Positions 2,846 to 47,110 of a stretch of DNA of 64,000 nucleotides are shown here, piece after piece; positions within the stretch are counted from its first letter, which is position 1, and every line of letters starts with the position of its first letter. This stretch comes from Adineta vaga. Lineage: Eukaryota; Animalia; Rotifera. The stretch covers positions 13,516,001 to 13,580,000 of the forward strand of contig CP075493.1 of NCBI GenBank assembly GCA_021613535.1, given 5' to 3'. A program made the translations under genes and the position numbers. The notes beneath the pieces are model-generated. The model did no database searches and was not told where the DNA came from. It saw only the letters and a list, made by a program, of their open reading frames with translations.

Positions 2846-3480
2846 GTTATAATTTCCAAGAATTTGTTTATACATCGAATGATTATACTGATGTTTCTAT
2901 GTAGTCACCAATCTATATAAATAGTCAAATGCGAGAAGAAATAGAAGAAAATAAGAAAAACTTATGTCATGTTTTATTACTTAAATTAATTGATAAAGTA
3001 AAACATTAGTTTATGGGATAAAATAAAGGATGCTTTAGTAGTAACTGCATGATGTGTTGTTGTTTGACTTCGTTTGTAACTATACTATTTCTCAGTTCTT
3101 TACATGATTAAAAAAGTTCATTTTTATGCTGACTTTTTGTTATGTTGTTATGTGTGAATAAATGAATTAACACCGATGGATGCTAGTAATAATTATCAAA
3201 AGACGCACATTGGTTTTATTTTTATTCTCAGGTATATCATGCAATCTTTTACTGATATCAAAATGAATTCATATGTCGCTTGTATGTGGCGACACATATA
3301 CTATTGCGATACGCTTTGTAGAGGAACAACTAACGGTTAATGACGGAAAGAATGAATAATCGTCAAGTTATCCTATCACGCTGCATAGTGCCAAAAAAAT
3401 TTTCCTTATTTCTTCGTGCTCAGATAAATGGTAGTGTAGTTAACAATATTCTTTTCGTTATAGATACATCTTCATCAAAT

Positions 3481-13665: not shown

Positions 13666-14312
13666 TCGAATAAGAGGACTTTGAATGATATCAATATAAA
13701 ATCTTCGTTACAAGTGACAAAAATGTATATTACTTTACATAATTATAAATGTTTCTTATCAAATAAAATTGAAAGAAAAGTCGATTTTATTACTTCACTT
13801 CAAATACAATCGATTTTATTTTCAGCTAGTATTCTTTAAAAGTCCTTTAAGCAAATATTAACTATATGATGAGTCATGCTATTAATAGAGGTATAAGAAA
13901 TTTGTTGATCTAAAATCAAGACTATATGTTTATAGATAATAATCATTTTGATGTTGGTAATTGCATTTAATTAATAAATTCTGTTTAATTTTACTACACT
14001 TCAATTGTCCGTATTCTCCATTTTAGATTTCTAAACGGTTCATAGAATGTTGTGACATCTATCTCAGAATTATGATTTGGTGGTTCCAAGTTCTCATATC
14101 TTACGTTGTTTGGGCTTTTTCCCAGTGCTGATAATTCTGATCTAGTACATATATTGCTGAGTTACCATCATATTTTGAGAGAACTTTAAAGATATCAATG
14201 CAATTTGATTAGGTAAGTTTTAATAAGAAGTTCGTAAAAAGGTTATACTGTGATTATTAATAAAACTTCGTTAAAATTTTTTACCGTTAGTTCTATTGCT
14301 TTGATTTTACAG

Positions 14313-17300
14313 ATGTTTTCGACAAGTTTTCGTTTTGCGTCTTCTTATGACGATTATGGTACATTGAATTCACAAGAAGTAGATGAATCAATTCTAAATC
14401 ATCTATTTCTTCCTCATGGATTATCGTCTTCAGCAAGTGGCGATCATTTAATTCAATCTGACCATCAGAATGAATACAAACTACTTCAGTGTATGTATGA
14501 TTATCTGAAATCTTTGGTTGAAAAAAATGAATTACCAATCTTTTCAATCCTCAAAACCTGTACGGAACGTTGGTCGACCATACAAAATACGAAAAAGTGC
14601 TCTGTTTCACTTTTACAGTCTACTATACAAACATTATCGCCAGGTGATGTATTTCCCCTATATTTTTATGCTCAAAATGCCGCAATTTTGGTTGAAATTG
14701 AAGAAGATTCTCCTTATCAACCGTTGATATCATCATGGCAAGTCTTATTACCAACAGAAACTATCACATCATCACTTGAATCGCATCTTTCTTGTTTTCC
14801 TGTTCCTATGTTTCGCTTGCCTGATCGATGTCAACTATTATCCACTGTACATTGTGAATTGCTTGTGGAATTTATGAATAATACAATTGAACATTCAAAA
14901 TCTCAGAAAGCATCGTACACATTCGATGAAACTCGAGAAGTACCTATATCACATTATGTATGTCGATGGTGGACCACACATTTTCAAGGTGTTCAAATCG
15001 ATAATCAAACAAATACATCCGTTTCATTTAAGAAGAAACATCGTGATCAAATTCGATATAAAAATTCAGCATATCCTTTTCGACGATCAGGTTTATGGAT
15101 GACTATGAAAGTTGTCTTTCAAAAGATTCTAACAAAAAGTTTCGGAAAGTTAGGTACTGTAGTTTATAAATTACTTATTACTGGTTTCTTAACTTATTTC
15201 CTCTATACGAAACAATAACAAGTGAAAACTTGGATATCAACTGATCTTCTTATACATTGTCTTCGAAAGATCGCACGACGATTGAACAAAATTGATGTTT
15301 TGTTATCAGCGATTGACTCGAGCGATTTAAATCCATGGATACAAAATTTAAAAGAAGAAATAAAACAGAAAATTGATAGTATGACTCCGAATTTGGATTG
15401 GCAAAAATCTATCGAGAAAGGTGAAAAAGAAAATATGCTAAAAGTTCAACTGGATCCTAATCCGTTAGAAATCTATCAGCATACATGTCAGAAATTGAAG
15501 GCTTACCTCAAAAAGAATCATTCTAATACTTCGAGCACATATTCATATGATAGATACGATTATAATGATCGATCATCAACTGGTATTAATCATGAAGATG
15601 ATACTTTACCTCGAGTTTCTGATTTAATCAATTACGAGAATGATGTTACAGGTATAGCATTGGCACGTATTGAAATTTGGATACAATTCTGTTTGGAAAA
15701 ATGGATCAATCATTCGTTACTATTAACAAACAAAGACACATGTTTCGAAGATCTACAATCTTTTTACGAAGATTACCAACGTGCCGCTTTAAATTTCTAT
15801 TATTCAAACAATGAATCAACTGATCCAATCGGTTACAGTCGTTTTATTTTAGCATCATTGTCAGTCATAAGATTGATGCATTTAAAACTATGTGAAGATC
15901 CACGATTCGAACGATTGAAACTTCATGCCATTCGAATTCCTAATCTTTTGAATCTATTCGAATTCTTAATCTTACCCAATCGTGATGATATGATTCGAGC
16001 ACGAGAATTATATGATTACTTTTTAGAATTTAGTGAAAAATCATATCCTGATCTTTTAAGTAATATTGATTCATCAAATGCTTTCGGTGTTCATTTTACT
16101 GAAAACTCAGTGGAAATCAACAAAAAATTGCAAGAAATTCAAGAACAAGTTGAACAAGACAAGAAAGATAAAATCGAAGAAATAAACAATGCCAAAGAAA
16201 AATATGAACAACTTATGGAAAAAGTCAATGATCTTAAATGTGAATGTGAACCGCTTGTTTATTATAAAAAATGTAATCGATGTACCATGATAAAAGAAGC
16301 AGATAATATAAAAGTTGCTATATATGAATGTCCAATACCATCCGAACGACAGAGTGCTTTAGCTGTTATGTTTGAATTGCAAATGCCAAAAGAAATTCGA
16401 TGTTATCGAGATATACTTTGGCAATTTATTAATCGTCCCAAACCAAATCCTTCGAATAGTATGCATGAATGGCTAAGCACTCGTCCTCATCAAAGTAAAT
16501 TGAGACAATACTTCAATGGTTCACATAATTGTAAAATAAAGTTAGTATCTCAAACTAAATCAATATCGGAAAGTCATTATTCAGTACCACGACACATTAT
16601 GTCAACATCTTTGGAAGAATTCTTCTATGAGAATAGTTTAAAAATTCAAATATCTCCGAATAAAATAAATGAATTTCAAGATGAATGTCAAACATTGACA
16701 CCTAAACTCTCTGATTCAAATTACAAAAATTTACAATTTTCTATTAATAATACAGGATTTGTACAAAATCAAGTCATCGCTGAACTATCAAAATGTTCAT
16801 TGAAACTGAAATTAGCAGAGTTTATTGAATATGGTTCATTCCGTTCTGGTCATCGTTTACAATGGTGGAATCTTCTGAGTATTCTTGAATTAGATTCATT
16901 ATCTATGGATGAAGAAAGTGTTGTCATACTCATAGCACATGCACTTTTACAATATGGTCCAGTTACAAAAAATCGACAATCATTGATTTGTTCATGGTGC
17001 CCAGAATCACATCAACAATTGTTGGAAGATCATTTTCTCGATGAATTAATGACAAGATTGGATCGTCATTTGAAAGATTGTGAATGTAATTGGCAAAATG
17101 AATTGATATTAGTTATTATAACTATGATTGTAATGAGAATGTTTACGATATGTAATTTAACACGAAAAGAACAGATGGCAAATTTAGTTTTAAAATGTCG
17201 TAAAACAGGTGAAAAATGGATTCAACTTATCTCGGAAACTATTCAAACTTCATCTTCATCAGATTCCAATATGATGAATGGTTTACGTGATAAAATCATT

Positions 17301-20300
17301 GTTATTGGTGCGACGCATCTCCTAACATATTCAATATATACAGATAGTAGTAATAAGTTAGTACTCACAAATAAAGATGTTATTTCTCTATTGATTATAG
17401 CAACAACTATGCATGACAATAGTATTTTAAACAAGAAAACAGTTCATACAAGTATATTTATGAGAAATTTAATGCGTTATAGTGAATATGTATTGTTATC
17501 AATTCATCCAATCATTAGTAAACTACTTGAAGAAAGTTCTTATGAAAGTTTAAATGAATTTTGTGCTATTCATTGGGCAGTTGTACGAACTAAAGGTGCA
17601 ATGAATGGTAAATGGAAAAAAAGAAATAAAGATATATATGACGGTTGGTATGATGGTGAATATGAATCGAATAAACTATCAATTGATTGTTTACAAGGAA
17701 GATTTTTTGTCAATAAGGTGACCATTGGTTTCTTACCCAATAAAATTACTTCAGATGAACTATTTCGTCGCGTATTTGGTACACATATTTTTGAAGTACA
17801 GGCGTCAGAATCTCAAGACAGTTACTTTTCAAAACATGGACATCATGCTAATGAACAAGTTCACTATGAATTTTCATATAAGGATGAATATTATGGAAAT
17901 CGACGATTATTAGTATATGAACGACACATAACGACAAATGATAAGTTTGAATTGATTCCTTCCACTTGTTTCGAAGCAGAACTACCTGATATTTTCGTTT
18001 CGAACTACAGTCATTGGTGGAATGAAAAGAAAAAGATATTACGATTGCGACCTATTCATTTTCAAGATTTCAATTTTTTGAATGATACGTCCTACATATT
18101 ATCAATCAAAGAAGGAATTATTACAACGTGTAATACTGAAAACAAACAACATTTAATTAATCGGTCATCATCCTTTTTTCAAAATTTATTTCAAAAATAT
18201 TTTATTCGTCTCGACGATGAATCGTACGTTTATATGTTAAGAGAGAAAGATTCTATTCACATTCATCTATCTCGATTAAGCATCGCGTTCAAATATGATT
18301 GTCATAAACATATAATAACTTCTCGAGAATATTCTGACATGTATATCGACGGAGATCAATGTTTTGGAACACTGACAGGTCTGAAATCAGGACTTCTTCT
18401 ATCGCCAATCGCAACAACTACTAACGAAAATAAAAATTATCTCTCCCGAAAATTAATCGTTTCTTTTGGGCAAGTACAGGCAATCAAGAGTTCGTATCAA
18501 AATCATCAAACTGTGACTGTCGAACGAAAATCACTGCCATCATCATTCATCCATCAATATTTTGTTTTTGTTTTGAATGATCGATTACGAATTCTTCAAC
18601 CAACGGACAGTCCAACAGGTTGGCTCTATCTAGCATTACTACATGCTATGACTTCGCATCCATTACCAGATCGATATACAGGAATGACTGGTATGGAACG
18701 TGCATTTCAATTATTATATTCGGCAGGCTGTTGGTCTGATCAACCTTATGATTCAATCACTCGAAGTATTCTTTTTCAAATTGCAACCATTTCACCTAAA
18801 GTCAATTTCTATCCAGAACATATCACTTGTATGGCAAAAATCGATTGGAATGAGAATAGTTTACCGTACTCAATGCAACATTTTGGTTATTATTTAATAG
18901 TGAAAAAATTAGTCGAGACAAGTGAAGAATGGAATTTCATGCATCCATTACTTGTTTCGAATGATGAATTACAAAACCTCTTTCAAAGTAAAAAGTATAA
19001 TGAAAAACTATTGGGTAAACTCTACTGGGACTATCGGGATTTATACAACCCCACAGCACAATTATCAGAACAGATGGAAAAAGAAATTCGTTATACAAAT
19101 TCAACGCAACCATATCAACCGATCTGTGAGAATTCTTCATATTCAACAAACTACACATCTCGTCGTCTTGTAGATCACCTGTATGCTAGTGGAGATGTCA
19201 ATCTAAAAGATAGTAAAGAATTCAGATGTTTTCCTTTATCTCGATGGTTGAAAGATGAATATCAACTGAAACATATTTGGATAGGTTTATTTAAATTTGC
19301 CGAAGAGTTAACAGCGCTTGAAGGTGATGATCGAAAAAATGAGATTGACAGATTTGAAATGTTACTAGATTTTCTACATTACATCTCCGGTAAATGTTCA
19401 AGTGAACCGTTTTATTTACAAATGCTGAAATCTATATTAACAGTACCAACTCTAACAGTAAGATCTGTCCCGTACCCAGCATTTACTGGATATGAAAACA
19501 TTCAAGAAACTTCAGTTCAATCTCATAGAATCTATCTAGGAAAAATGGGTCATTATAAACGGGCGATAGTTTTTCGAGAAATTCAAGATTGCTTCAACAA
19601 AATTACTACTTATGAAAATAAAAATCTACCGGATATGCATCAACTAACTCGTCAAGCGAATAAAATCAACAGATTACTACAATCTTGGCGAGAGAATGCC
19701 AAACTTCGTTTGCTTTTAGACAATATTCAAAATCATTTTCGTTTTATTACAATTGTCCAATTGAACAGCAAATTGTCTGTAAGTCCTCAAAGATTTGAAT
19801 TCGAATCATTTCAACAACATTATCAAGTTCATGTCACTATGATAGATACGCTCATTGATAAAAAATCGATTGAAAACGCACAAACAAAATTTTTGCAGTC
19901 TCATTTGAATTATTTTATTAAACCAACCATGTGTGTTCCAGTCATTACTGAAAAGAAAGCATTCCCAGAGGAAATTTTTCTATCAACTGATTCTCAAGTG
20001 AATCCTCTCAGTGATATTAACAGTTATTTTAAAAAGCATTTAACTGAAAGTTGGAACAAATTTAATTTAACCGAAGAATATCAACAAGAGTTTCCATCAC
20101 TCGACGAAATCAAACAATTTCTTAATTCGTTTCGACATCAATCCATACAATTTTGGGATGAATTAGTAAAATCTATTACAACAGCAAATGATTTGTTGGT
20201 GAAAACGGGTCTAGTCGTACGAATCTTACCAACGACTATGATTTCTATTTTTCAACAAATATGGCTAAATGAAAATAATTCGAATGTCTTACTCTTACAT

Positions 20301-23300
20301 CTCACACATGATCAATGTATACTACTTGGTGGTATAATGGTTAATTGGATTGTAGAACAACAGATTGAAAGAGCATTAAACTTTGCCAATTTAGAAAAGT
20401 GGGAAGATTTTGAAAAAGAAATATTAAATGTACCGCATACTAATTGGATACCATCACAACATGTTCCATGGTTAATATTAGAACTTGAAATGAATATTAC
20501 AATTCGAGAAATACAAGTTCAAACAGCACGTCATATGATACAACCATCGTTGAATGAAAACAATTCTTCCGTACAAAATATTGTTATGCAATTGAATATG
20601 GGTGAAGGCAAAACGTCAGTTATTTTACCTATGTTAGCAGTTAGTTTATGCTCGTTATCTTCGAATTTAGTTCGTATTATTGTGTTGAAAGCATTATTTC
20701 CAATGAACTATCAATCATTACGATATAAATTAGGTGGTTTACTAAATCGACGTGTTATACCATTTTCATGTCGTCGTGACATGAATTTCAGTCATATACA
20801 AACGAATAAAATTTTTGATCGTCTCAAACAAGGAATGCACAATCTTGACATAGTATTAACATCACCCGAAGATATTTTATCTTTTGATCTACTTACAATA
20901 GATAAATGTCGTCGAAAAGAATATGATGTTGGTCGTTCAATGCTATCGATTCAGAGTTGGGTGAAAAAGTATGTTCGTGATGTTTTAGATGAATCTGATG
21001 AAATTCTGCATGTTAAATATCAATTAATTTATTCGATCGGTCGTCAACAACAAGTTGATGGAGGTATGGAACGTTGGAAAACTATTCAATACGTACTGAA
21101 TTTAGTCAAACAACACGCTGCCAACATTGCACAACAACATATGGATGATGTTTTCTACACAGCACCTAAACGGCAAAGTAGCTTCCCAGAATTTCGTCTC
21201 CTAAATCACGAATCATATCCTGAATTATGTCGAAGAATAGCAAATGATTGGATTGATCAAAAAAGTTATCGACAATTAGATCAACAACATATCTTATCAT
21301 TTATATTGAATACAAATTCTTCTCTCGATGATCTGGACAATCAATTTCCTCAAAATACAATTCAGTTATTTTTGATCCTACGTGGTCTTCTATCATCTGA
21401 AGTCTTGTTTGTTGCTTTGAAAAAACGTTATCGTGTTAATTTTGGTATAAATCCAAATACGAAATTCAATCGTTTAATGGCTGTACCATTTCGGGCAAAG
21501 GACGTTGCAGCTGAAAATACAGAATTCGGACATCCAGATGTAGCTATTACTTTAACACTAATTTCTTATTACTATCAAGGTCTAACAGATTCACAAATGT
21601 ATCAATGTTTTAATCGTTTGAATCAAGATGAAAGTGAACCAGAAATGATCTATGATCAATGGATTTCATTAGAAGAGGAAACTGATATTATAGCAAGCAT
21701 AAAGCAATGGAAAAGAATCAATCTAAAAGATTATCAACAACGAACTCAATTACTCTTTCCTAGCTTACGATACAATATGTTAGTGATAAATTATTTTCTC
21801 AATCATTTTGTTTTTCCTCTCGAAGCAAAACAATTTCCTCAGAAATTAGTTGCTTCTGCTTGGGATCTATCGTCATCTATACGCGAGAAATTAATCACTG
21901 GATTTAGTGGTACAAATGATACTCAACTACTATTACCTGTTCATATTTGTCAATGTGATTTATCAGAACTTCAAAAAACGGATGCTATTGTTCTTAACAA
22001 TTTACTTTGTTCGGAAAATGATCATTATCAATATTTACCCATTGCTACGAACTCCAATGAAATTTTGAAACGAATTGTCATGAAAGAACCAATGATTCAA
22101 GTCATTCTCGATGTTGGTGCATTGTTCATAGATGGAACAAATCGTCAAATAGCTGTCAAATGGTTGGACTTATCGGATAAAATGAAAATTGATTATGTTG
22201 TGTATTTTGAATTAGATTCGATATTTGTTTGTAATCGTCAGTATCAACATCATGCTTTTGCGACATCACCTGCTAGTGAACGTCTTGATCGTTGTGTATT
22301 CTATTTAGATGAAATTCATACGAGAGGAACAGATTTTAAATTTCCAAATGATTTTAGAGCTGCTGTCACCTTAGGAAATGGTCTTACTAAGGATCGTTTA
22401 GTCCAAGCATGTATGCGAATGAGAAAATTAGGTAAACATCATTGGTTAAGTTTTTGGAGTTCAAACGAAGTTCACCAACAAATTCGAACAATCAAAAACA
22501 AGGCAATTTTACTGAATAATAAGAAAAATAACGACGAAAGAATTACTTTAACGGATATTCTCCGTTGGGTGTATGAAAATACTCAACAGGCGACTTGGGA
22601 TGGTCTACATCTTTGGGCAACACAAAGTTTAAGTTTTCAACGAAAACTGACTGCTTTTCAACTTATCGATTGGAAACAAGACGGAACATCATATACCAAC
22701 ACATTAATGGACAATATAGCTAAAGGATCGTTGGAAACTGAAGTCTTAGAATTGAAATCTATGTATGGCGTATCGAAAACATTCGAAACAATATCAGATA
22801 TTTATTCAGCTCGTTATGAACATTTCAATATTTTTTCTTCAATGGAAATTCATCAAGCTGTTTCCAAACGTTTACGTGATTATGGTGGTTCGAAAAAACT
22901 TTTGACACAGTTACTCGATGAAGAACAACAACGAGAATTAGAGCGAGAACAAGAATTAGAAGAAGAACGACAACAGAAACGTCCTTCACCGGTTCGTCCT
23001 GCTGAACCTCAATTACATGACGAAATTAAAGCCTTATGTAACGCACGTGATCCTATGCTGAATTTATCAAAATTAACTTCAGTATTTCATCCCATTGCTG
23101 ATGCATTTCTTGGTACTACGTTCTATCGTGAATGTCAACCACGTTGTTGGTCACAAAATCTTTGGGTTAGTGATGAATTCATACGTGTAATACAAACGCA
23201 GGGAGAACCGTTAGATCCTTTTTTGCGTCCATCACGATGGATTCTGATCTATCGGAATGAACATATTATTTTTGTCAGTCCCTTTGAAGCTAATTGGCTT

Positions 23301-23807
23301 ATGGGTCGCTTATATGATCTTTATCGTCAACAACCACTAGGAGAAGTACTCACAACCACTCTACGTCTAATATTACCACGAACTAAACGAGATCAATCAA
23401 TTCTCGTTGATACATCTACTTTAACAATTCCGCCGTCAAACATATCAAATCTTGGAGCTCTTTCTTTCCCAATTCCGATCGAATGGTTAGTGACTATGTT
23501 TATTTTTAATGGTACTCTATACTTTAAGACCACAGATGAACAAAAAGCCTACTGTCAATATCTAGGTATTTGTCCAAAGCCACGTACTGAGATTGAAGAA
23601 GACGCTTTTGAGAAGGGTTGGATCACTTTCGATGGATTCGTAGAAAAATCAGAATATGGCATTCTTTTACAACTGCAATCATGCAATTTCCGTACTAATC
23701 CGTTGGCATTCATTAGAAAATTAGTCGAAAATCGAAACAACACACATCCACCTCTTATATCTCATGTTGGTAGTATTCTTATAAACAATGTGAAACTTCC
23801 TGTCTAA
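14313..23807 (+). CDS. Giant intronless DUF6606-DUF3638-DUF3645 protein with an SF2/SecA-like ATPase core; one in-frame TAA at 15216-15218
   Basis: LNHLFLP N-terminal motif; QLNMGEGKTSVILPML (Walker A), LDESDEIL (Walker B), LMAVPFRAKD..AENTEFGHPDV, GFSGT, HTRGTD, QACMRMRKLG. ORFs 14250-15218 and 15222-23807 share one frame. ATG 14313 follows a ttttacAG acceptor. Confidence 0.8.
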
Positions 23808-26359: not shown

Positions 26360-28173
26360 TTATAATTTCTGTCGATAATCACTGAGTAAATTTTCCATTG
26401 AATCATCGATATTCTTAATCCATGGTTTGCAAATTTCGACAGTTTTTTTGTTTTTTGTATCGACAATGGATTCAAAAGATATATCACGATAATGAAGTAT
26501 ATCAGTTACAAAACTTTCCAAAAATTTTTTCATTAAATGATTACCTTTATCCAAATCGAATTTTGATAAAGATTGATTAACATCATATGCATATAATAAG
26601 GCGAATATATCACGCATATAATCAGTTTGAAAATCAAGCAAAGCAAAGAAATCATTCGGTGCTATAGCTTTTTCTCGTTTTTGCCATTCATTCACATCAA
26701 TCTGCTGTTGATCACGATCAGGCAATTTAGTATGGCCGAGAAAGACATCTCGTACAAGTGCTGCTTGTAAATCAAACAAAGGAAATGAGAAAAATTGTCT
26801 TGGAGCACCTAAATAAGCTAGATGTGGTTGATCAATCCAAAAGATGCTCTTGTAGAGATTCGATGGAACAAACTCAGTTATACTAGCATGTAGATGAAAT
26901 CGTTTGGCCATAAATGGATATGAATGACGATAACCTGTACAAATGATAATCACATTGATATTATCAACAGTCGAATCATCTTTGAAATGAGCTGTTTGAC
27001 TTTCCATACGAACAATCGCTGGTGCGTCTTTTATTTCAGCTGGCCATTTAAAACCAATAGGTTCTCGACGAGAACTAATGGTTACCGATCGAGCACCAAA
27101 CTTATAACATTGTAAGGCAATATCTACTGCAGAAAAGCTACTACCAATAATTAATAAATTAAGACCGACAAATTCATCTGCACCACGAAATTCATGTGAA
27201 TGAAGAACTCGACCCGGAAATTGATCCATCCCATCGATATTCGTCATGTTTGGGACATTATAGTGACCAGTTGCTACAATAACACGATCAAAATTTAGAC
27301 AATCTACTGAACCCGTATGAAGATCTTCAATATTAACATTAAATTCATTTTTTTCATCATTAAAATCAACATGACGAACAGCTGTATTGAAACGAATGAA
27401 TCGTCGAATATTTCCTGCTTTGGCTCTCCCAGTGAAATAATCGTAGATAAGGCTACGCGGTAAGTATGATGGAAGGAAGCAACCAAAGTGATCATAGAAT
27501 GTATAATCAGTAAATTCAATAGCTTCTTTCGGATTGTTAGACCAAAGTCTAGATAGAATAAGAAAAGAAATAAATTTCAGCGAATAGACTTTTGCGAATG
27601 TCTAAAATAGATTACCCCAGAAAATCGACAAACTACAGATTTATCTCTGTGTATCACAAATTATTTACTTTCACTAAGGCAACGATTTCAAAGAACGATG
27701 AATATGTTATTTTAGATACTTTAAGGAGACGTCCGAGAAAATATTACATGACAATGTGTCAGAAGACAATCGATTAGAAGAGTACTAAACAATAGGAATA
27801 ATGTAGTCGATATAGGTTTTATCTTCTGGAACTGACAACCATAAGTGCCAGAAATTGTTTAGTATATCAGTTAATTAGATCATTCTTATTAGAAAAAAAT
27901 CTATATTCACACTGAAAAATAAACAAAAATACAATAGATTTTATTGCAAGTTCATAGATGATATACTTACTGTCGATACATGCTCGAATGAATTGGTTCA
28001 CCATAAACATCTGTGCCTATCAAAGATGTATAAAGCCATAAACCACCCCAATCTGATTGTCTTTCGAAACAGACAAGTTCAACTTGTTGTTCTTGTTCAG
28101 CTTGTTTGAATGCTAACAATTGTGAAAGACCACATGGACCAGCACCAATAATTGCAATGCGTAATTTACTCAT
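26360..28173 (-). CDS. Flavin-containing monooxygenase, bacterial trimethylamine-monooxygenase-like; intron 27970-27549
   Basis: [42 protein letters not shown] signature [27 protein letters not shown]. Exons join in frame with no stops. Confidence 0.9.
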
Positions 28174-36595: not shown

Positions 36596-37783
36596 TTAAT
36601 TCTCATCCTCACCCTCATTTTCATTCCCGCCCTCACTTTCATCCTCATTCGCTAAGCACTTGTACACTTCAACATCTTCAACCATAAAATTCTGTTCTCC
36701 AGCGAAAAGTGTTTCACCTTTTCCGGTGGTATCAATATACCTGGACGGAAATGAAGATTCCGAGTCAATATTCTTGTTAGCGTTATCAGATATAGAAATA
36801 TCCATGAAATGTACTTCATCTTTCACTACTCCACCAAAATAGCCACCAATTTGTTTTGAATGACCAGCAGCGTTAGTTCCCAAACGGTTCACAAAAAATT
36901 TAGTTGGTCGTATATTATGTGGATTTCTCAGAGTAAACAAAAATGCAGTTGAATCCTTCTTATATTTGTTATCAGAAGTCCAAGGTATTGTTGTGTAACC
37001 TCCAAATAGATAATTCCCATTTTTACTTTGTATAATAGTCATTGTAGGACCTTTATCATCTGAACAACGATGGAAGTCGTCTGCACGAAAGCCATCTTTT
37101 TTTGCCTTGTAAATTAATTCCCACTTTTGTTTCGGATTACCATAGAAATCATTCAATCTCATTTGATAATCAGCACAGAGAAGTGTACCTCCATGCATGT
37201 AATTATTTCCTGTGGAATGAACGAGAATCAAATCGTAATCAATTGAAAATGGTTTAATATCACAATAAACAAGACGGGTGTGTGTTTTATTAACATTTTC
37301 TTCTAGCTCACGCAATCTTCGTTTTAATATGTTCAATTCTTCAAATGTCACATCATTTTCATTAATAAAAGATGCTGTTTCGTTTTTTAATGTGTTAACT
37401 GTTTCCAAATGATCAATTGTCTGCTGTGCAAAGACTTCTTCATTATCATCCAATAAAAGATCGAGGTTTTGTTTTTTTAATTCATATAAGTCATTAATTT
37501 GTTTGATAGCTTCATCACGCCATTGTGTTAATTGATCAAATATGTTTTGCTTATATCCTTTTACGGTAAAAGAGTTAATCTTTTCATTCAATTCATTGAT
37601 ATTATCGGCTAATGGATTGAGTTTCTGCACGATTTGATCTGCGTGTTCATCGAAATGACGTCGACAGACATTTTTACTGCAGTGACGACATAATGTAGCT
37701 GACATACGTTGACAACTTTCAATCTCACATGGTTTCAATGGAGCGTCATTCGCTACAGAAGTTGTTGTCTTAAACGAAAACAT
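36596..37783 (-). CDS. B-box-like zinc finger, coiled coil and TLDc domain protein (true 5' end uncertain)
   Basis: C..C...LC.HC...VC..HF.EH; WELIYKA..DGF.A.DFH..SD.KGPTMTII, LFGGYT, FLFTL, F.VEDVEVY TLDc motifs; acidic tail. Confidence 0.8.
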   Translation of the reverse strand: MFSFKTTTSVANDAPLKPCEIESCQRMSATLCRHCSKNVCRRHFDEHADQIVQKLNPLADNINELNEKINSFTVKGYKQNIFDQLTQWRDEAIKQINDLYELKKQNLDLLLDDNEEVFAQQTIDHLETVNTLKNETASFINENDVTFEELNILKRRLRELEENVNKTHTRLVYCDIKPFSIDYDLILVHSTGNNYMHGGTLLCADYQMRLNDFYGNPKQKWELIYKAKKDGFRADDFHRCSDDKGPTMTIIQSKNGNYLFGGYTTIPWTSDNKYKKDSTAFLFTLRNPHNIRPTKFFVNRLGTNAAGHSKQIGGYFGGVVKDEVHFMDISISDNANKNIDSESSFPSRYIDTTGKGETLFAGEQNFMVEDVEVYKCLANEDESEGGNENEGEDEN

Positions 37784-38144
37784 AATTTATGTTATAGGAG
37801 AGAATAAAATAATCACAGCACAAAACTAACGTTTTTTCCCAGTTTATTAACAACAAAATTGTCGAAGCGCCATGGTTTCTCTTGGTATTATAGCAAGAAC
37901 AGGAAAAAAAGAAAGTCGATCGTTTAGATTGAGTTACCTGTATCGCACCAACCAATGAATACGAGAAAGATGTCCTCTTTTTTTTGTATTGGAAGTTGAA
38001 AACCTCAATATAATTCTATAAAAGAGTTATGACCTTCATAATCAGAGAAATTTAGATCATGATATCCTTTTTCTAAATGATTTCATATTTATTAAGCATA
38101 CAAAGTATGTTGTAAAATATAAACGAATATTTTTTCTGCCGTTT

Positions 38145-38510
38145 CTAAGAATGATTTTCTAGTCGCTCTATAAAATCTTTTTCTTTAGAAATCCCAACTA
38201 AATAATCAAATTCATTCCTGGCTAAATCTTTGTTGAGTTTAGCTAAAAGAAGAATGAGACGTTTCTCTCCTGGTGTTGTCGTTGCTTGTGCATCAGTTTG
38301 TAAATAATTCTTAAATTCATCATTTGTTATTTGAGCATGGTTACATAACTCTCGGATACATTTATTAATGTTTCGACAACGTTGTGAAAGTCTTTCGTAA
38401 TCATCAATACCGATTGGAGGAAAATAACCAAACCACGGTTCTTTTTGTCGACATCTTTTAAGTGAATTTTTTAATCGTTCGTAAACATTCATTTCATTAC
38501 TTGCAGCCAT
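38145..38510 (-). CDS. Small hypothetical, probably helical protein (121 aa)
   Basis: Clean ATG-to-stop ORF with coding-like composition in AT-rich flanks; no family recognised. Confidence 0.5.
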   Translation of the reverse strand: MAASNEMNVYERLKNSLKRCRQKEPWFGYFPPIGIDDYERLSQRCRNINKCIRELCNHAQITNDEFKNYLQTDAQATTTPGEKRLILLLAKLNKDLARNEFDYLVGISKEKDFIERLENHS

Positions 38511-38722
38511 AGTAAAATAAGACTTTTGAATAAATTATTGAGAAAGAAAAAGAAATTGCGCAAATATGAAGCAAATAACACAATATATGTGTATCATGAG
38601 TCATCAAACAGAACGGAAAGGAATAGAAAAAAAAACACTTTCGAATTTTTTTTGTTTTTATTTTTTAGAATATAGGTTAAAGAATTCATTATATCGAGGG
38701 GAAACTATGAGGCGAATAAAAG

Positions 38723-39191
38723 TTATTTATTTTGTTGTTGTTTTTCTGTTGTATATTTCAGAACAGCTCGAAGCCATGTACCTAATTCATGACATAATGA
38801 AGAGATCCGTTTAAGTTCATTTGGTTGACATTCATCTTGATTTAAAATAATATTCAATTTTTTTATTTGTTCAGAATTTATTTGATCTTTATCTAGGTCA
38901 AATAAACGTTGAAGAAATTTATCAGCACCTGGCATCATTAATTTTTTATCATCATCCCAATCCCATTGATCTTTTGATGGTTCAAGTAAAATTCCAATAC
39001 ATTCAAATATTGAGAGGCAAGCAAGAGGTGGCTTCGCATAGGATCTTAGTTCGTTGAATTGACTTTTTGGTAATTGACGAAGAGATTCTTCAGCCACTAA
39101 ATAGATTAATATTTTTCATATTAGTATACAGAAGTAAATAAAATATATTACCAGTTATGGTATCGACAGTTGAGTTGGAAATTGAGGCCAT
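38723..39191 (-). CDS. Stand-alone dynein heavy-chain stalk microtubule-binding-domain protein (137 aa); intron 39151-39097
   Basis: AEESLRQL.K..FNELRSYAKPP...IFECIGILL...W...KKLM...FLQRL..LDKDQI...P..LKRISSLC..L..WLRAVLKY follows the dynein MTBD pattern. It has its own ATG exon and stop; no AAA or long stalk exons are adjacent. Confidence 0.8.
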
Positions 39192-39646
39192 ATTCCGTTC
39201 AAGAAGAGAAGAAAAGAAATGTTTTTGTAGAGTGGTGAAATAATTGAGAATTTATTTCTTGAGAAATGCTTCCGAAGAAAAAAGAAGAAAAGTTTTCTTC
39301 TTTCATTCTTGAAGAGAAAAGAATACATGTTTTGTTACACTATGATGAGTTCCTTATTGAAAACATTGTTATGTGCTTAATCAATCAACGTGTTTTCTTC
39401 TAAATCAAGTGTTTCTAATGTTGAATTTGCGATACAGATAGTATAAGAGCTAAAGATTATCTTTACTTTTTCTTCTTCTGCATAAACATTAACAAGGACA
39501 ACATTAGCGATAAAAAAAAGTGTGCAGATAAGAAAAGAAAAAGGGGTTGTTTTTTTCTCCCCCGTATTATTTTGTGTGTGTGCACGAATAAAAAAATACA
39601 AACTTCTTTCTTTCTATACTTATCAACTATAAGATAAAGAGGCGAG

Positions 39647-40110
39647 ATGGTGTTCACTATTATTGTACATCTAACTGCAAAGAATGAGCACGTGGACAAA
39701 GTCAAAGCAAAAATAATCGAAGCAAGTCGCGTCTATGTTAAAGATAAAGGAACTATCGACTGGTTCGTTAGTCAAGGTAAAACAAATGTATTACTATTTA
39801 TCATTTAAACAGAAATTTGTCATTTGAAAAACTATAGATGCAACGGATCCAACAAAGTTTGCCATCGTCGAGCGATATGAACAGCAAAGTGATGTACAAA
39901 CTCACATCAATAATCCATATTATAAAGAGTTTGGTGCATATGTAAAACCGCTTCTATCTAAACCCTTGGTAAGTAATTAAATCCATTATTAAAATTCTTC
40001 TCCTAGTATTGTCTTTGAAATTATAGGAACTTCATAGCGTAGTCGAATTGGATACATCGAAAGAAGTCGAAGTTCCTCCACAAACCTGGTCGGATGAAGC
40101 GGATAATTAA
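39647..40110 (+). CDS. ABM (antibiotic biosynthesis monooxygenase-like) domain protein, 114 aa, fungal type; absent from the ORF track
   Basis: Exons 39647-39776, 39838-39968, 40027-40110 (345 nt) give MVFTIIVHLTAK...IEASRVYVKDKGTIDWFVSQD..DPTKFAIVERYE...HINNPYYKEF..YVKPLL.KP. Confidence 0.85.
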
Positions 40111-40243
40111 ATTATTTTCATAATATGTTTTTAATTTGAAAAAAAATCAGTTTATTCTAACTAAATAAAAAAAATGGTATTTCAAGGTCATTCTAACTAA
40201 ACACACACATATGTAAATAAGCATGTTAATTCAACATGCTTTT

Positions 40244-41694
40244 TCATGATGGAAAAACACTGAATCGTCGTTGCAAATTTTTATTCATACTAGCAACAGG
40301 TATGATACTAAATCGTCGATCTAAATTTTTGTTCAAACTAGCCGCATCATTTGCTTCTTCAGCTTCAGGTAAATGCCAATTCGGTTCATCTTCAAAATTT
40401 TCATATTTTTGTACAAATATCGGTATTCGTAATATTAAACCTGTAATTAATCCACCTACAATAGCCATACCTAATGTTAATCCAAGTGCAGCTGCTTGAT
40501 ATGCTGCTTGCATATTATTTGTTCGTTTCATTCCACCACTAAGACAAACATCAGTGAGATGATCTAAATAACCTGATCGATTTCCAACGAAAACGATGAC
40601 AATTCCTGCAATAGCAGCCATTAAACCTGGTATTCCATGTAAATTATGTACTCCACATGTATCATGAACACGTATATCTTGTAGTTTCGGTAGGAGAAAA
40701 TGAAAACCTAAAACAGATACCATACCAGCAAGTGTACCAATAATCATTGCACCATGAAGACCAATATTAGATGTGGCGACAGTTCCAATAGCAACGCCAC
40801 CAGCTAATGTTGAATTCTGAATATGAATCATATCTAATTTACCTTTCCGAACAATGGTTGACATAAGAAAAGCACCCATGACCGATGCACATATCGATAC
40901 ATATGTATTTGTAATAGCATGAAGTCGTTCAATACCACTTGCTGTACCAGCATTGAACGATGGCCAAAAACAGAACAAAAACATAGTACCAATAATCGAA
41001 AATAAATCGGATGTATAACGAGATTTTTCCAATGGTGAACCAAGAACATTCGAATGAAATAGAACAAAAGCAACAGCTAACCCAAAATAGGCACCTATGA
41101 ACGAAATAATGTTATTCGATGAATTTCTTTATTTTCATTTTTCTTACCAAATACATGTACAAACATCGATTCTCCTCCATCATTCGCACAGAAGAAATGT
41201 GTACCAATCCATTCGTTGACTACTTGGATAGGAACTTCGAAGAATGCCATTATAATTAATTGTAGAGGACTGACTTGTCCTAGCACTGCTCCCATCGAAA
41301 TCAATATACTAGCCGAAACAAAATCAGCTGTGGATAAACTTCGTACATCAACAATAAATTTTTGTTTCGCATCATTCCAATCAAACATATAGCCACGCAT
41401 AATCAAAGCCCATTCAACTGTAAATGCACATAAGATAAAATTGAATCCAATTGCAGAATACGAATAATGACTTAAGAAAGTCATAAGAAATCCAAAACCA
41501 ATAAACATCATTACATGAATATCAGTAAACATGGAATAATAGAATTCTACTACACCACGTGGTGGATTTTCAAAATCAGTCACATTTGAAACGGGAAAAT
41601 ATTCATATTCACTGTAAAGACCAAAAAGAATAGTAAAAATTGTTTGGAGAAGAAGTAGAACAGCTGGAAATAAGTAAGGACGATATTCTACCAT
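40244..41694 (-). CDS. Rh-type ammonium transporter; intron 41147-41095
   Basis: DIHVMMFIGFGFLMTFL, ISMGAVLG, SMFVHVFGAYFGL, FWPSFN, HIQNSTLAGGVAIG, HDTCGVHNLHG. Confidence 0.95.
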
Positions 41695-41958
41695 CGTTTT
41701 CTTTTCTTTTTAAAATATGTGTTTTTATTCACTTCGTCCATTCATACCTATAAGAGATAAACGAAAAGATAAGATCGTATGTAACATATAGAAGGACGAA
41801 GAGACCAGTAAATATATGCTGTAAAATAAAGCACAAAGTGTAGATAAACAAGAAAAAGGAGAACATGTCTTTCCAACTAGATGGTATCATTCTGTTGAAG
41901 TACACGACAAGAATTTTATTGTTGAGAAAAAAAGAAGCAGTAGTTTTAAGTCAAAATA

Positions 41959-43488
41959 TTACAATCGACTATGTTGAATCGGAAGATTATTTTGTGTTAA
42001 AGCTGTTAATAAAGTATCTAATTTCATTTCTAATCGTTGCATTCGATCTTCAATAAAATTCGAATGTTGTTTCAGTTTAACAAGTGTTTTTGCATTTGCT
42101 TTTTGTTCATAATAAACATTGGTTAAAACAGTGAGTAATGAATCATTTCCATTGATTGCATTTCGTCGATAATGCTTAATAAGTTTTGCCGCTTGAATTG
42201 CTGTATGTAATCGACAGAGTGAATTAAATGTTGCTCCATAATTTGATTTACGTCGACGAAGAAACCAAGCTCGAACAGAATATTGAATAATTTCAGTAAC
42301 TCGCATTCGATATTCTCGTGCTTGATTGATACGATTGACAAAATCTAAAACCATCTGTTCAGATCGATTCAATGAAATTTTATTTATAAATACAGCAATT
42401 AAAATTGCTGAAGCAAAAACACCAATAAAAGATGTTAAAAACGCAATAGCTAGAAGTATAGAAGAAAAAAACAAATCAAATAGATAGAACTTTTTTTAAA
42501 CTCACATCGAGCACAATAAGTTTGAAGAACTAAATCACCATATCCTAAAACAATTTAAGTTATTAATAGATAGAAATCTTTTGAGAAGACTTACCAACAG
42601 TAGTAAATGTTACAATACTAAACCAAGTCGCATTGGCAAACGATGATGTGTAAGAAATCGGTTGTAATGATAGTGTTTGAATTGGTAACCACATTCCTTT
42701 TTCGCATGCATGTAATGACCAACTAGCAATGAATAAGATCGTTGTCATCAAACAAGACCAACATAGACCAGGATATGTTTGAAGAAAAGCTCGCAGAATA
42801 AATGATATGGTCATGGGTACTCGATTTAAATATCCAATCGAACGTGATGAAGCAGCATCGACTAATGGAGAATGTAATGTTACACTACGTGCAATTAGAT
42901 AAAGACGAGCAAACACTAAAAGAAGTTAAATTTATATTTAGAAAAAAAGAACACAAACGATTGAACAACCAATTTCTTACTAGGTAAAGTGAGTATCATA
43001 TCAATCCAAACGAAATCATCATTTGACGAGGATATTTTAGAAATATAAGGAAATGGATGAATAATACAAATGACTATTTCACAAATGACGATGATAATAC
43101 CGCGAATCTTTAAAGTAACACGCCAATCAGCAATATGATTATTGATCGCATATAGACGAATATCGAGCATATGATAATATAGAACAAGTCCAACAAGAAT
43201 TACTGAAGAACAACTGATCAAAGGTCGAATTATAATAATACGTTGTTCATCAACTTGATTGAATCGACATTCAGTATCAATAATCATAAGAATAAGACCA
43301 AAAAGAGCAATGAAACACATGATATCATTCACACGACGACATCGAAAATGAAGATTTTTACGTTCAATTAAACTATGTTTCATTGATAAAATCGATTTTT
43401 TTTCATCTGAAAGCTTTTTCGAATGTGATTCAGGCATTGCAATAACTTCAGTTAATTTGAATGGCATTCTAATATGATGATTTTCCAT
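41959..43488 (-). CDS. SK/KCNN-like Ca2+-activated K+ channel; 4 exons
   Basis: Exons 43488-42981, 42915-42595, 42544-42506, 42449-41959. DWR, IHPFP, MFARLYL, SRSIG.LNRV, pore TFTTVG|YGD, calmodulin-binding region and coiled coil. Confidence 0.9.
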
Positions 43489-44417
43489 GTATCCTTTGAA
43501 TAAGTTGTCAAATAACTAGAAATGTACTTTGAAAATGACAAGAAAAAGAATACCATGCAATGCACGTCATTTTCTTTTCTTTCCTTTTTTGACGAGATAT
43601 TCAGGTTATCGTCATTTGATGAACAATATATGTATTCATTAAAAAGTCACATCTTCTCATATGAATCCCTCTTGTGAAAGAAAGTGCTTCATTGTTTTCT
43701 TATAGATTAACAGAAGACAAGATTTTATTCATCAAAAGAAAAGATCGAAAGCATATATTAATGTCATGAAAACGCAAGATGTATTTCTGAGAGTGAACAA
43801 ATCAATTTGATATATTTATCTGTAGAATTCCTATTTTTATTCTTACTTTCACACCCACAACTCATATTCAGTAGTTCTATCTAGAACAAATGAATGTGAA
43901 AAGCAAAATATAAACTCGAGTTTCAATGATATTCCATCGATGTTGTTGATCAGTTTCATCTTTATTACTGGCAGGTAATGGTGTGAACAGATTCTGATTT
44001 AAAAAATAATCTTCCAGAGAAGGCATTGTAGAAAAAGAAAAAAAAACAAAGTGAATTTATATTATGTTGATATTTTCTCATTACAAAATGAAATTGTTAT
44101 TGAAACATGCTTTTTCTCTAATATTAATTAGTATACACAAGGTTTTTCAGTCTAGAAAGTAAAAACAAAAGCTGTTTTTAGATATGCAGTACCCAGGTAA
44201 CTGTTTATCTGAAGCTGTGTATTCAGATCTAACTCATATTATTGATTTTACCTGGACAATACGGAAAAAAACTATCTAGGACTTTAGTTCATTACTGTCA
44301 CATTATTCTTTATCGTTTTTTGAAGCTCTTCGCTTGTTTTGGTTATCTCATCAACTTTCATTTCTTATCTAAAGAATAACCTTGCAAACTTTTCAGTTGT
44401 GTAAGTGAGATTGAAAT

Positions 44418-47110
44418 ATGAAGACATTCATATTCTTAACTATTGTATTACACACTTTTATTTTACAAGTACGAACAAACGAATATATTCAATCACAAAA
44501 ATTATGTAACAGATTAAATTTTCCAACCAAAAATGTACGTCAAGTTTCTATCACTGGTCGTTTAATTGATCGTACAATCTATATAAGTAATGCAAATATT
44601 GAAATTATCTATATATCATCAAATCATCGATCGATATGTTCGACTCTTTATCATTCAAGTTCAAATGGTTATTTTAATCTAACCAATGTCGTAGCACAGT
44701 TCGATGAAGAACTTCTTCTACGAGTAACAGCACCAGGTTATAAAATCTTTCACAAGAAAATTCCTTTACCATTATCGTACGAACGATTGAAAGAGATACA
44801 ACTCAATTGGCAAATTACTTTAACTAAAGATAACAAACATATGAAATCTATTGTTGATACGCTCCTAGCTGAAATGACGTTAGATGAAAAAATTGGTCAA
44901 TTAAATCTTGAAGGCGTGGGTTTTAATGACGATGGTCCAATTATCAGTGATACATTACGAAAGAAAATTCAACGTGGTGAAGTCGGTGCTGTACTCAATA
45001 TTTTTACACCCAAAGCTGTTCGTCAATTACAAGAACTTGCAATAAATAGTAGTCGTCTAAAAGTACCTTTTATCTTTGGTTTCGATGTTATTCATGGACA
45101 TAAAACAATTTTCCCAGTACCCTTAGGTTTAAGTTCAACATGGAATATGTCGTTAATTGAACAAAGTGCACGTATTGCAGCTCGTGAAGCAACAGCTGAT
45201 GCTCTCAATTGGGTATTTTCACCTATGGTAGATATAGCACATGATCCACGTTGGGGCAGAATTATGGAAGGTTCTGGTGAAGATCCGTGGCTAGGTAGTC
45301 TCGTAGCTGCAGCTATGGTACGCGGTTATCAAGGAAATAATTTAAGTGATGTAGATACGGTTTTGGCATGTTTTAAACATTTCGGTTTATATGGCGCAGC
45401 AGAAGCTGGACGTGATTACAATACGGTTGACATGAGTCCTTTACGGATGTATGAATTTTATCTTCCTCCGTATCGTGCAGCTGTCGAAGCTGGTGCCGGT
45501 AGTGTTATGACTTCGTTTAATGAAATTAATGGTGTTCCATCTACAGCTAATCGATGGTTGTTAACTGATCTACTTCGCAATCAATGGAATTTTACTGGAT
45601 TTGTTGTTACTGATGCTACGGCAATTAGTGAATTGATTAATCATGGTTTAGGCAATTTACAAGAAGTAAGTGCACGTGCACTGAATGCTGGTGTTGATTT
45701 GGATATGGGTAGTCAAGGATTTTTAACAACATTAAATCAATCATTCCAAGAAGGAAAAGTAACTGAACAAACAATCGATCAAGCATGCCGTCTTGTTCTA
45801 GAAGCGAAATATAAATTAGGATTACTTGATGATCCATTTCATTATGTTAATGAAACACGAGCACATACAGATATATTTACAAAAGAAAATCGTTTAGCAG
45901 CAAGAGATTTTGCTCGTCGTTCTTTCGTTCTTTTGAAAAATGACAAACAAATATTACCATTAGCCAGATCGAATCTAACTGTGACTCTCGTTGGTCCATT
46001 GGCTGATGATCGTAGAAATTTACTTGGTGCATGGAGTGGAGGTGGTGATTGGAATCAAGCAGTAAGTGTTCTCGAAGGTATAAATCAACTTATGGGAAAT
46101 AACATCCAAGTCTTACATGTCAAGGGAGCAAATCTTCTCGAAGATCCATTAATGCTGAAATTATTAAATGCCTATGGTGGTGATATTATCTTAGATAATC
46201 GAACAGCAACAGAAATGATTGATGAAGCACTTCAAGCTGCACAGAAATCTGATATTATTGTTGCTGTTGTTGGTGAAACACAAGGTATGACAGGTGAAGC
46301 AGCGAGTCGAGCCGATATTGGATTACCTGTTTGTCAACAACGTTTACTTCAAGCATTATTTCAAACAGGTAAACCTGTAGTTATCGTATTAATGAATGGA
46401 CGACCAATGACATTAACATGGGAAGATCAATATGCAACAGCAATTTTAGAAACATGGTTTGCTGGTACAGAAGCTGGAAATGCAATAGCTGAAGTACTTT
46501 TTGGTTATTATAATCCAGCTGGGAAATTAACAGCAACATTTCCACGTTCTGTTGGACAAATTCCACTGTATTACAATAAAAAAAATACAGGAAGGCCATA
46601 TAATTCCAGTGATTTTCTCGACCGATACAAAGTAACAAAATATCGATTAATCGTTTCTAAACAAAATGAAATGTTACTATTCATTTTTAGAGTCGTTATT
46701 TAGATATACCAAATGATCCTTTATATCCATTTGGTTATGGTCTTAGTTATACGACTTTTAGCTTTGGTCCATTGAATGTAGATAAAACTGAACTTCATGG
46801 TGATTCTGATCATCTAAATATTAGTGTTGTTGTAAGTAATACAGGTGCATATGATGGAGAAGAAGTTGTACAACTGTATATTGGAGATCCAGTTGCAAGT
46901 GTAACACGAGCTGTACGAGAATTGAAAAATTTCCAGAAAATATTTCTTCAAGTTCGTGAACGTAAAGAAATTTCGTTTATTGTTACAAACGATGATTTGA
47001 AATTTTTCGATGCCAATCTTAATTATATTTGGGAAGAAGGTGTCTTCAACATTTATATCGGTCCTGATTCAGTAAATACTCAATCGGTTCAAATTAATTG
47101 GTTTAAATAA
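44418..47110 (+). CDS. Secreted GH3 beta-glucosidase (BglX-like) with extra N-terminal beta-sandwich and C-terminal Fn3-like domain; intron 46632-46690
   Basis: MTLDEKIGQL, DVIHG, DPRWGR..EG.GEDP, KHF, GFVVTD, VLLKN, GEAASR, PLYPFGYGLSYTTF, GEEVVQLY, ELKNF.KI.L. Confidence 0.92.

Follow-up and report, generated by a model that had tools for sequence, protein, structure and literature searches.

A 64,000-nucleotide stretch of Adineta vaga DNA (the window) contains a complete gene for a dynein microtubule-binding domain (MTBD) standing alone. By sequence and predicted fold, the 137-aa product is a true dynein MTBD. It is not a dynein heavy chain, as it has its own start and stop and no AAA ring, linker, or tail. 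The dynein MTBD is regarded as meaningful only at the tip of a stalk whose register is controlled by the ATPase. Here, an animal keeps the MTBD as a whole gene, with ends close to those that biochemists picked for their isolated constructs. A natural stand-alone dynein MTBD gene was not found described in the open-access literature, and the "MTBD-like" of the TTLL11 paper is unrelated.

The gene, its transcript and its surroundings

The protein is encoded by two coding exons on the minus strand (39191-38723), with the ATG at 39191-39189 and the TAA at 38725-38723. The predicted product includes ELRSYAKPP and WLRAVLKY. Six two-exon models are possible, and the chosen one is identical to UJR17561.1 (P0001), the hypothetical protein I4U23_004457 of Adineta vaga. 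The initial annotation had described a complete two-exon gene encoding only the MTBD, and this description holds: the gene has its own ATG, intron, and stop, and Pfam MT is its sole family. The features are listed below in window positions (X and L numbers denote sequencing runs and metagenome loci, respectively).

39357..39488, minus strand: upstream non-coding exon, optional, of another allele; an X5 contig has the joint 39306/39357 and uses the same acceptor
39308..39309, minus strand: probable trans-splice AG acceptor, where the spliced-leader-like end of the X8 contig joins
39192..39307, minus strand: 5' leader of the trans-spliced mRNA, 116 nt, covered by spliced contigs of X8 and X5
39199..39306, minus strand: upstream ORF, 35 codons, out of frame, its stop ending 7 nt before the main ATG
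39152..39191, minus strand: coding part of the first coding exon, ATG plus 13 codons plus one base, the N-terminal start of the CC1 stub; based on the junction at 39152 in contigs of X5, X8, and X2 and on the equal phase-1 intron position in L001 and L002
39097..39151, minus strand: intron, 55 nt, GT..AG, phase 1, skipped in RNA-like contigs of three studies
38723..39096, minus strand: second coding exon, with the CC1 stub, MTBD helices H1-H6, CC2 stub, and TAA; based on Pfam MT, PDB sequence matches, the AlphaFold model, and Foldseek
39029..39073, minus strand: H1 segment, residues 22-36, with K24 (mouse K3299 site), E29 (E3304 site), and R31
38807..38809, minus strand: codon of R110 in H6, the mouse R3382 site by offset from the human DYNC1H1 match
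38668..38722, minus strand: 3' UTR, at least 55 nt; RNA-like contigs extend to 38668 or 38666

The gene is expressed and spliced. Eight sequencing runs were compared, none of them recorded as RNA, and RNA status was inferred from splicing. The intron is skipped in three of the eight (X8, X2, and X5), which come from three studies; this answers in the affirmative the question of expression attached to the initial annotation. The junction of the chosen model (39096/39152) is present in RNA-like contigs of X8 and X2, and likewise in X5 with one allelic letter. The X5 allele carries two silent changes, plus one change at 39096 which is read as V14A. Run X11 reads through the intron and behaves as DNA, X9 and X10 give short unspliced pieces within exon 2 only, and X1 and X6 do not bridge the intron.

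In X8, a single spliced contig (depth 2.1) stops at 39309 and carries 11 loose letters beyond it. The same run has, on the neighbouring gene, a 21-letter loose end that finishes with these 11 letters, and in both cases the joint falls at a genomic AG. We take the loose letters to match the published bdelloid spliced leader. The 21 loose letters plus 2 make 23 nt, which fits the reported length of the bdelloid leader, 23 nt (PMC1925144). A trans-spliced 5' end located 116 nt before the ATG leaves no space for upstream dynein exons in that molecule. Position 39357 is allelic: the window has AT, another allele GT. The GT allele thereby gains a 5' UTR intron of its own, spliced to the trans-splice acceptor; X11 carries the variant that creates this donor. 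The 35-codon upstream ORF is probably a chance occurrence. An ATG is present in 75% of shuffled leaders, and the ORF has inserted letters at 39288/39289 in the other allele (run X11), so that a role as conserved regulator is unsupported. At the 3' end, the contig ends at 38668 were ruled out as a poly(A) site, since DNA contigs also break there, at a repeat.

In line with the initial annotation, the gene is bounded by unrelated genes. A TLDc protein and a 121-aa ORF without known family lie on one side, and an ABM-like protein, an ammonium transporter, and an SK channel on the other. Splicing into a larger dynein transcript had also been raised; no such link was seen in the spliced contigs, in the related loci, or when seven full-length dyneins were compared with the 64 kb. 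Six of the seven match, and only at 39094-38750, and no dynein family was found in the 19 other long ORFs of the window. The reading as an exon of a larger dynein is rejected on the spliced contigs, the gene's own stop in relatives, and the absence of any other dynein piece in the 64 kb.

The 121-aa ORF is located 3' of the MTBD gene (38145-38510, minus strand). No Pfam family exceeds the cut-off for it, RNA-like contigs cover it, and 10 base differences in the other allele alter 3 residues. The divergent ABM-like gene (39648-40201, plus strand) shows a 21-letter spliced-leader-like loose end at the AG 39632-39633, is spliced at two introns, and is polyadenylated at 40201. A single contig spans the ABM-like and MTBD genes, so their divergent 5' regions may overlap. 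In the AV19 annotation, the block of SK channel, ammonium transporter, MTBD gene, and TLD gene (36596-43515) seems to occur twice, about 78 gene ids apart (FUN_001038-001040 and FUN_001116-001120); the ids look like those of a recent segmental duplication or an assembly duplicate. Elsewhere in the window, a very long, nearly intron-free gene (14238-23807, plus strand) carries DUF6606, DUF3638, and DUF3645, and candidates for horizontal acquisition are a glycosyl hydrolase 3 (44415-46703) and a flavin monooxygenase (26360-27601).

Fold, boundaries and contact residues

Pfam MT (PF12777) matches the 137-aa protein with 38.1 bits against a cut-off of 24 (1e-9), over profile positions 90-209 of 344 only. 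MT is the only Pfam family found in the protein, with no AAA family. Compared with the seven full-length dyneins, the protein attains a best domain score of 50.2 bits; none of 60 shuffles exceeds 3.4. The frame of exon 2 yields 64 matches among PDB sequences at E<=1, the best being DNAH6 (8J07_g5, 1.5e-12), and the 60 matches listed of these 64 are all dynein-sized chains or MTBD constructs. The AlphaFold2 model, predicted from a 6-row alignment, has a pLDDT of 89.6 and is composed of an N-terminal helix (residues 6-20), six core helices, and a C-terminal helix (residues 113-136). In Foldseek, the closest folds are 3ERR, 5AYH, and 9FQR_K2, with a TMq of 0.85 between the predicted model and 3ERR. 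The HMM and structure comparison suggested in the initial annotation thus agrees with its assignment of the domain. Atlas matches for the protein are PF12777 clusters and unlabelled clusters only. The predicted model is nearer to low-affinity structures (rmsd 1.8 Å to 3ERR, 2.4 Å to 6KJO) than to bound or high-affinity structures (2.9 Å to 6RZB, 3.4 Å to 6KJN), though predictors may favour crystal states.

The A. vaga protein shares with the MTBD of dynein heavy chains the six-helix fold, the CC1/CC2 ends, the PP following H1, and residues W60, W121, K24, E29, K64, and R110, and its best matches among dynein-embedded domains show ~30-37% identity. Unlike a heavy chain, it lacks the tail, linker, AAA ring, and strut, as well as any stalk past the kink prolines. 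The long CC1/CC2 stalk is missing: the PF12777 match is partial, and the chain stops at the position of the CC2 proline. All 50 dynein-embedded rows have a proline 14 residues ahead of the K24 site, and 48 of the 50 have one 16 residues past the W121 site. The corresponding positions of the 137-aa protein are D10 and its last residue, K137, and the prolines themselves are absent. On this alignment, the protein comprises everything beyond the stalk kinks, preceded by nine further residues. Most family rows (24 of 25) end 14-24 residues after the W121 site.

These boundaries are nearly equal to those of the engineered yeast MTBD-WT (K3096-E3232; PMC7042235), which is also 137 aa long and corresponds, by profile offsets, to residues ~3-141 of the A. 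vaga protein. PDB 6KJN and 6KJO are locked forms of the yeast construct. In contrast to the construct, the A. vaga protein is the product of a natural gene under selection, is axonemal-like, and shares 21-22% identity with it.

Residue equivalences were taken from the match to human DYNC1H1 (V14-T129 to 3291-3403), with a human-to-mouse numbering shift which we assume to be 2. With this match and the assumed shift, V14 corresponds to mouse E3289 and N106 to E3378. H1 is described as the register-sensing microtubule contact helix (PMC6629372, PMC4298687). Within the mouse protein, K3299 adjoins beta-tubulin D427 (PMC6629372), R3382 forms a salt bridge with alpha-tubulin acids (PMC4987762), and the substitutions E3289K and E3378K are reported to lengthen dynein runs (PMC4987762). 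Dictyostelium E3390 and R3469 are described as key bridges (PMC4298687); from helix position and spacing, we infer that they correspond to E29 and R110. The A. vaga copy is basic at all four tested basic sites and has the glutamate (K24, E29, R31, K64, and R110 are kept), and at the E3289 and E3378 sites it contains V14 and N106 instead of acids.

Conservation of these contacts differs across the family. In the 12-row core group, E29 is present in 10 of 12 rows, K/R31 in 10, K/R64 in 11, and K35 in all 12, figures inflated over H1 positions 29-37, which were included in the locus search pattern. The K3299 site is basic in 5 of the 10 core rows having a residue there, versus 50/50 dynein-embedded rows, and the R3382 (R110) site in 5/12 versus 35/50. 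All four basic sites are kept in 3 of 10 complete core rows versus 35/50 dyneins (41 of these 50 dynein rows were found by a pattern covering positions 29-37, which biases those columns). Residue 63 in H3 is acidic in 12/12 core rows and 0/50 dyneins, and P53, K55, W58, D62, D63, and Q90 are fixed in 12/12 core rows. The net charge of the core is -2 in the A. vaga copy, with a median of -1 in the core group and +2 in dyneins.

Moreover, the family differs from dynein MTBDs in a short H2-H3 insertion with the fixed P53/K55/W58 and in the acidic D63. The H2-H3 loop has 8 residues in 12/12 core rows, ~3 above the commonest length among the sampled dyneins (5), and the H3-H4 loop has 6 residues in the family versus 4 in most dyneins. 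Flap-bearing inner-arm MTBDs (DNAH1/3/7/12 type) are described with a 13-18-residue H2-H3 flap (10.1101/590786); the core group has no such flap.

A rotifer family and its possible origin

The stand-alone MTBD belongs, by sequence comparison, to a distinct multigene family conserved in other rotifers. The A. steineri orthologs are 138 and 139 aa long (65-70% identity), the Rotaria sordida ortholog is 139 aa (55-60%), and a second A. vaga family gene, I4U23_022495, encodes 144 aa (39%). A representative search gave 464 matches at E<=0.001, from which short query-like proteins were picked by eye. The 26 stand-alone-family rows, orthologs and paralogs together, form one side of a branch with a support of 98/88 in IQ-TREE (84 rows chosen by score from 309, 128 columns, bootstrap not settled) and of 0.98 in a 309-row FastTree. 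The named members, a minority of the 26 rows, are all bdelloid, and some rows are partial predictions.

Of the 80 metagenome loci retained, three are close relatives (L001, L002, and L003). L001 and L002 have the equal phase-1 intron position, 139 codons, and their own stop, at ~65% DNA identity across loci. NG86 dN/dS against the window is 0.32 for L001 and 0.30 for L002 (bootstrap upper bounds 0.55 and 0.51; dS near saturation), and L001 versus L002 gives 0.40 (upper bound 0.66); LWL85 gives 0.40-0.47 for the two distant pairs. The initial annotation had named a ratio near 1 as one of the refuting outcomes. The NG86 values (0.30-0.40) and their upper bounds (0.51-0.66) are all below 1, consistent with a gene which is under purifying selection, though the constraint is loose at dN/dS 0.3-0.4.

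In L003, the acceptor and the start of exon 2 are missing and the gene is frameshifted. This broken MTBD gene (L003:500-840) has its frameshift near the end and the same downstream neighbour as the intact L001, and represents decay or an assembly error. All three loci share a conserved stretch ~110 nt upstream of the ATG, in which a CAG occurs and, after it, a TGAGTCA motif (L001:194-230, L002:499-535, and L003:390-426). The distance from its CAG to the ATG is similar to that of the trans-splice acceptor in the window; the stretch itself was not seen upstream of the window gene.

A longer match was found for 1 of 210 candidates, a Rotaria sp. Silwood1 model. In this model and five of its cluster mates, the domain is embedded in 1426-2269-aa proteins. 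The scanned Silwood1 model contains MFS and ADP-ribosylglycohydrolase domains and no AAA family. Its residues from ~1002 on correspond to sequence downstream of the gene's stop in L001 and L003, hence a merger with adjacent genes is the most likely explanation. A genuine fusion to the MFS and ADP-ribosylglycohydrolase domains was therefore set aside, and the long proteins are read as merged gene models.

The family may have originated by excision or partial duplication of the tip of an axonemal-type dynein, no later than the last ancestor shared by Adineta and Rotaria, with a subsequent expansion. Ranked by the family profile, DNAH6 comes first, followed by Chlamydomonas DHC2, DNAH2, and DNAH1; by sequence, the closest solved dyneins are DNAH6 (8J07_g5), then DNAH1 (8I3J) and DNAH2. 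Protist repeat proteins were considered as donor and rejected: FastTree places two of them (P0023 and P0077) beside the family at only 0.79, and IQ-TREE (84/309 rows) does not contain this grouping, with no protist group resolved as sister of the family. In Table S2 of PMC12220480, the HGT column is blank for the likely copies of this gene, and the best insect hit, DNAH6, stands at 3.0e-07 against 1.5e-06 for a ciliate hit.

Candidate functions

We hold the chances to be evenly balanced that the protein is a weak (micromolar), ATP-independent binder of the microtubule lattice at the site used by dynein, and serves as a small microtubule-associated protein or mildly modulates motor access. In this case, H1, H3, and H6 would dock in the alpha/beta-tubulin intradimer cleft through K24, E29, R31, K64, and R110. 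Since the protein has no AAA ring that could drive a stalk, its CC1/CC2 stubs would shift between registers of low and higher affinity. How tightly it binds would depend on its sequence and on the binding event rather than on nucleotide, and would vary among orthologs. The yeast fragment K3096-E3232 is reported to bind microtubules with a Kd of 6.7 µM and to sit between registers (PMC7042235), which indicates that a stalkless MTBD can bind microtubules. According to Lacey et al. (10.1101/590786), a native-stalk DNAH7 construct decorates poorly, and a low affinity of the dynein-c MTBD is cited there. The eroded K24/R110 sites in orthologs, D63, the negative charge, the loose dN/dS constraint, and the broken L003 speak against lattice binding, and so, weakly, does the low-affinity-like model. 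From the proposal of a motor-free microtubule-binding protein, the motor-free MTBD gene stands, and the binding is plausible, given the contact residues kept in the A. vaga copy and the analogy with the yeast fragment.

The same divergent residues lend themselves to the main rival explanation, namely that the fold is kept but repurposed, with negligible microtubule affinity and another partner bound via family-specific surfaces, for example as a decoy or adaptor. We consider this possible, if rather doubtful. In its favour, the contact residues vary among orthologs and P53, K55, W58, D62, D63, and Q90 are invariant in the core group; the longer H2-H3 and H3-H4 loops and the slightly negative charge point the same way. 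In addition, the fold matches include an MTBD-LC1 complex, the outer-arm light chain LC1 being a protein that binds an MTBD (PDB 6L4P). However, H1 (E29, K/R31, K35, and the PP) and K64 of H3 are still conserved, the A. vaga copy keeps all four basic sites, and no partner candidate was identified. It appears very improbable that the gene is a dynein remnant in decay, or one exon of a larger dynein that annotation or assembly has broken up. The moderate dN/dS, the broken L003, and the 1426-2269-aa Rotaria sp. Silwood1 models agree with such an origin, and the upstream ORF could lower translation. They are opposed by the ATG, stop, and intron conserved across loci at ~65% DNA identity, by the leader-like 5' end, and by the 64 kb containing no other dynein sequence, while the long Rotaria models lack an AAA domain and look like merged neighbours.

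The initial annotation went further and proposed competition with dynein, arresting cilia or transport during desiccation. This finds no support, and counts in hydrated animals are low. FUN_001040 and FUN_001118 of the AV19 annotation carry PF12777 alone and have identical BLAST hits (PMC12220480, Table S2). Each lies two ids after an ammonium-transporter/SK-channel model, and FUN_001118 lies two ids before a TLD gene; as this is the gene order of the window, the two would be the MTBD gene and a near copy. Using the NCBI tag number as a FUN id is wrong, FUN_004457 being a calcium channel. In Table S2, the baseMean in hydrated animals is 12.6 for FUN_001040 and 0.5 for FUN_001118, and among the table rows covered it is 172-1104 for the four dynein heavy-chain-type genes with PF12777, which are much longer genes. 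The mean ground and flight values of FUN_001040 are 1.2-4.6, with a spaceflight FDR of 0.32 (PMC12220480). Expression of the MTBD gene thus looks low in hydrated animals, as far as this table goes. Among the supplements of Nowell 2024, 12 of 16 files gave no PF12777 match.

A stress-induced brake, which is strongly induced on drying, coats and stabilises microtubules, and blocks ciliary or transport dyneins, is graded as improbable. The family is expanded in bdelloids, judged by its named members, and microtubule-related genes are reported as over-expressed in desiccation and rehydration (Moris et al., PMC10809525), both of which would suit a brake. Yet the word "dynein" is absent from the main text of PMC10809525, the likely gene copies are low in hydrated animals, and the table records no differential expression in spaceflight, which is another kind of stress. 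To compete, a monomer with micromolar affinity would have to be abundant, and a motor-free MTBD is also present in a marine green alga (P0139), so that drying is not needed to explain the design. Marginally less improbable, though still unlikely, is a wider version in which bdelloids made the axonemal dynein tip into small register-free lattice proteins of varied intrinsic affinities, which occupy the dynein/kinesin footprint and serve as competitive brakes on cilia or transport when the animal contracts and dries. If the brake reading were true, it would provide an endogenous animal motor inhibitor built from the motor's own foot.

Returning to lattice binding, if the protein binds, it would found a new class of small microtubule-associated proteins and might compete with motors; as a 16-kDa recombinant product it is easily tested. 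The paralogs, with their different contact residues, constitute a natural series for the affinity and register bias of the domain alone.

Motor-free MTBD proteins also exist in other eukaryotes, as single, tandem-repeat, and fused forms, in which the domain is likewise freed from the motor. The rotifer family differs from them as a separate clade of bare single domains in an animal. No AAA family was found by Pfam in 49 of 55 hand-picked long or multi-match hits, many of which contain 2-6 MTBD copies, and a Pterosperma transcript encodes a 149-aa single MTBD. Together, the bare-domain animal case and the motor-free MTBDs of protists suggest that the domain has been freed repeatedly. The database entries of motor-free MTBDs are labelled "dynein heavy chain coiled coil stalk domain-containing". 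Proteins in the range P0023-P0170 have 2-6 tandem MTBD copies and no motor, and may be multivalent microtubule cross-linkers. One metagenome locus (L052:1-2709) contains five MTBD copies in one open frame.
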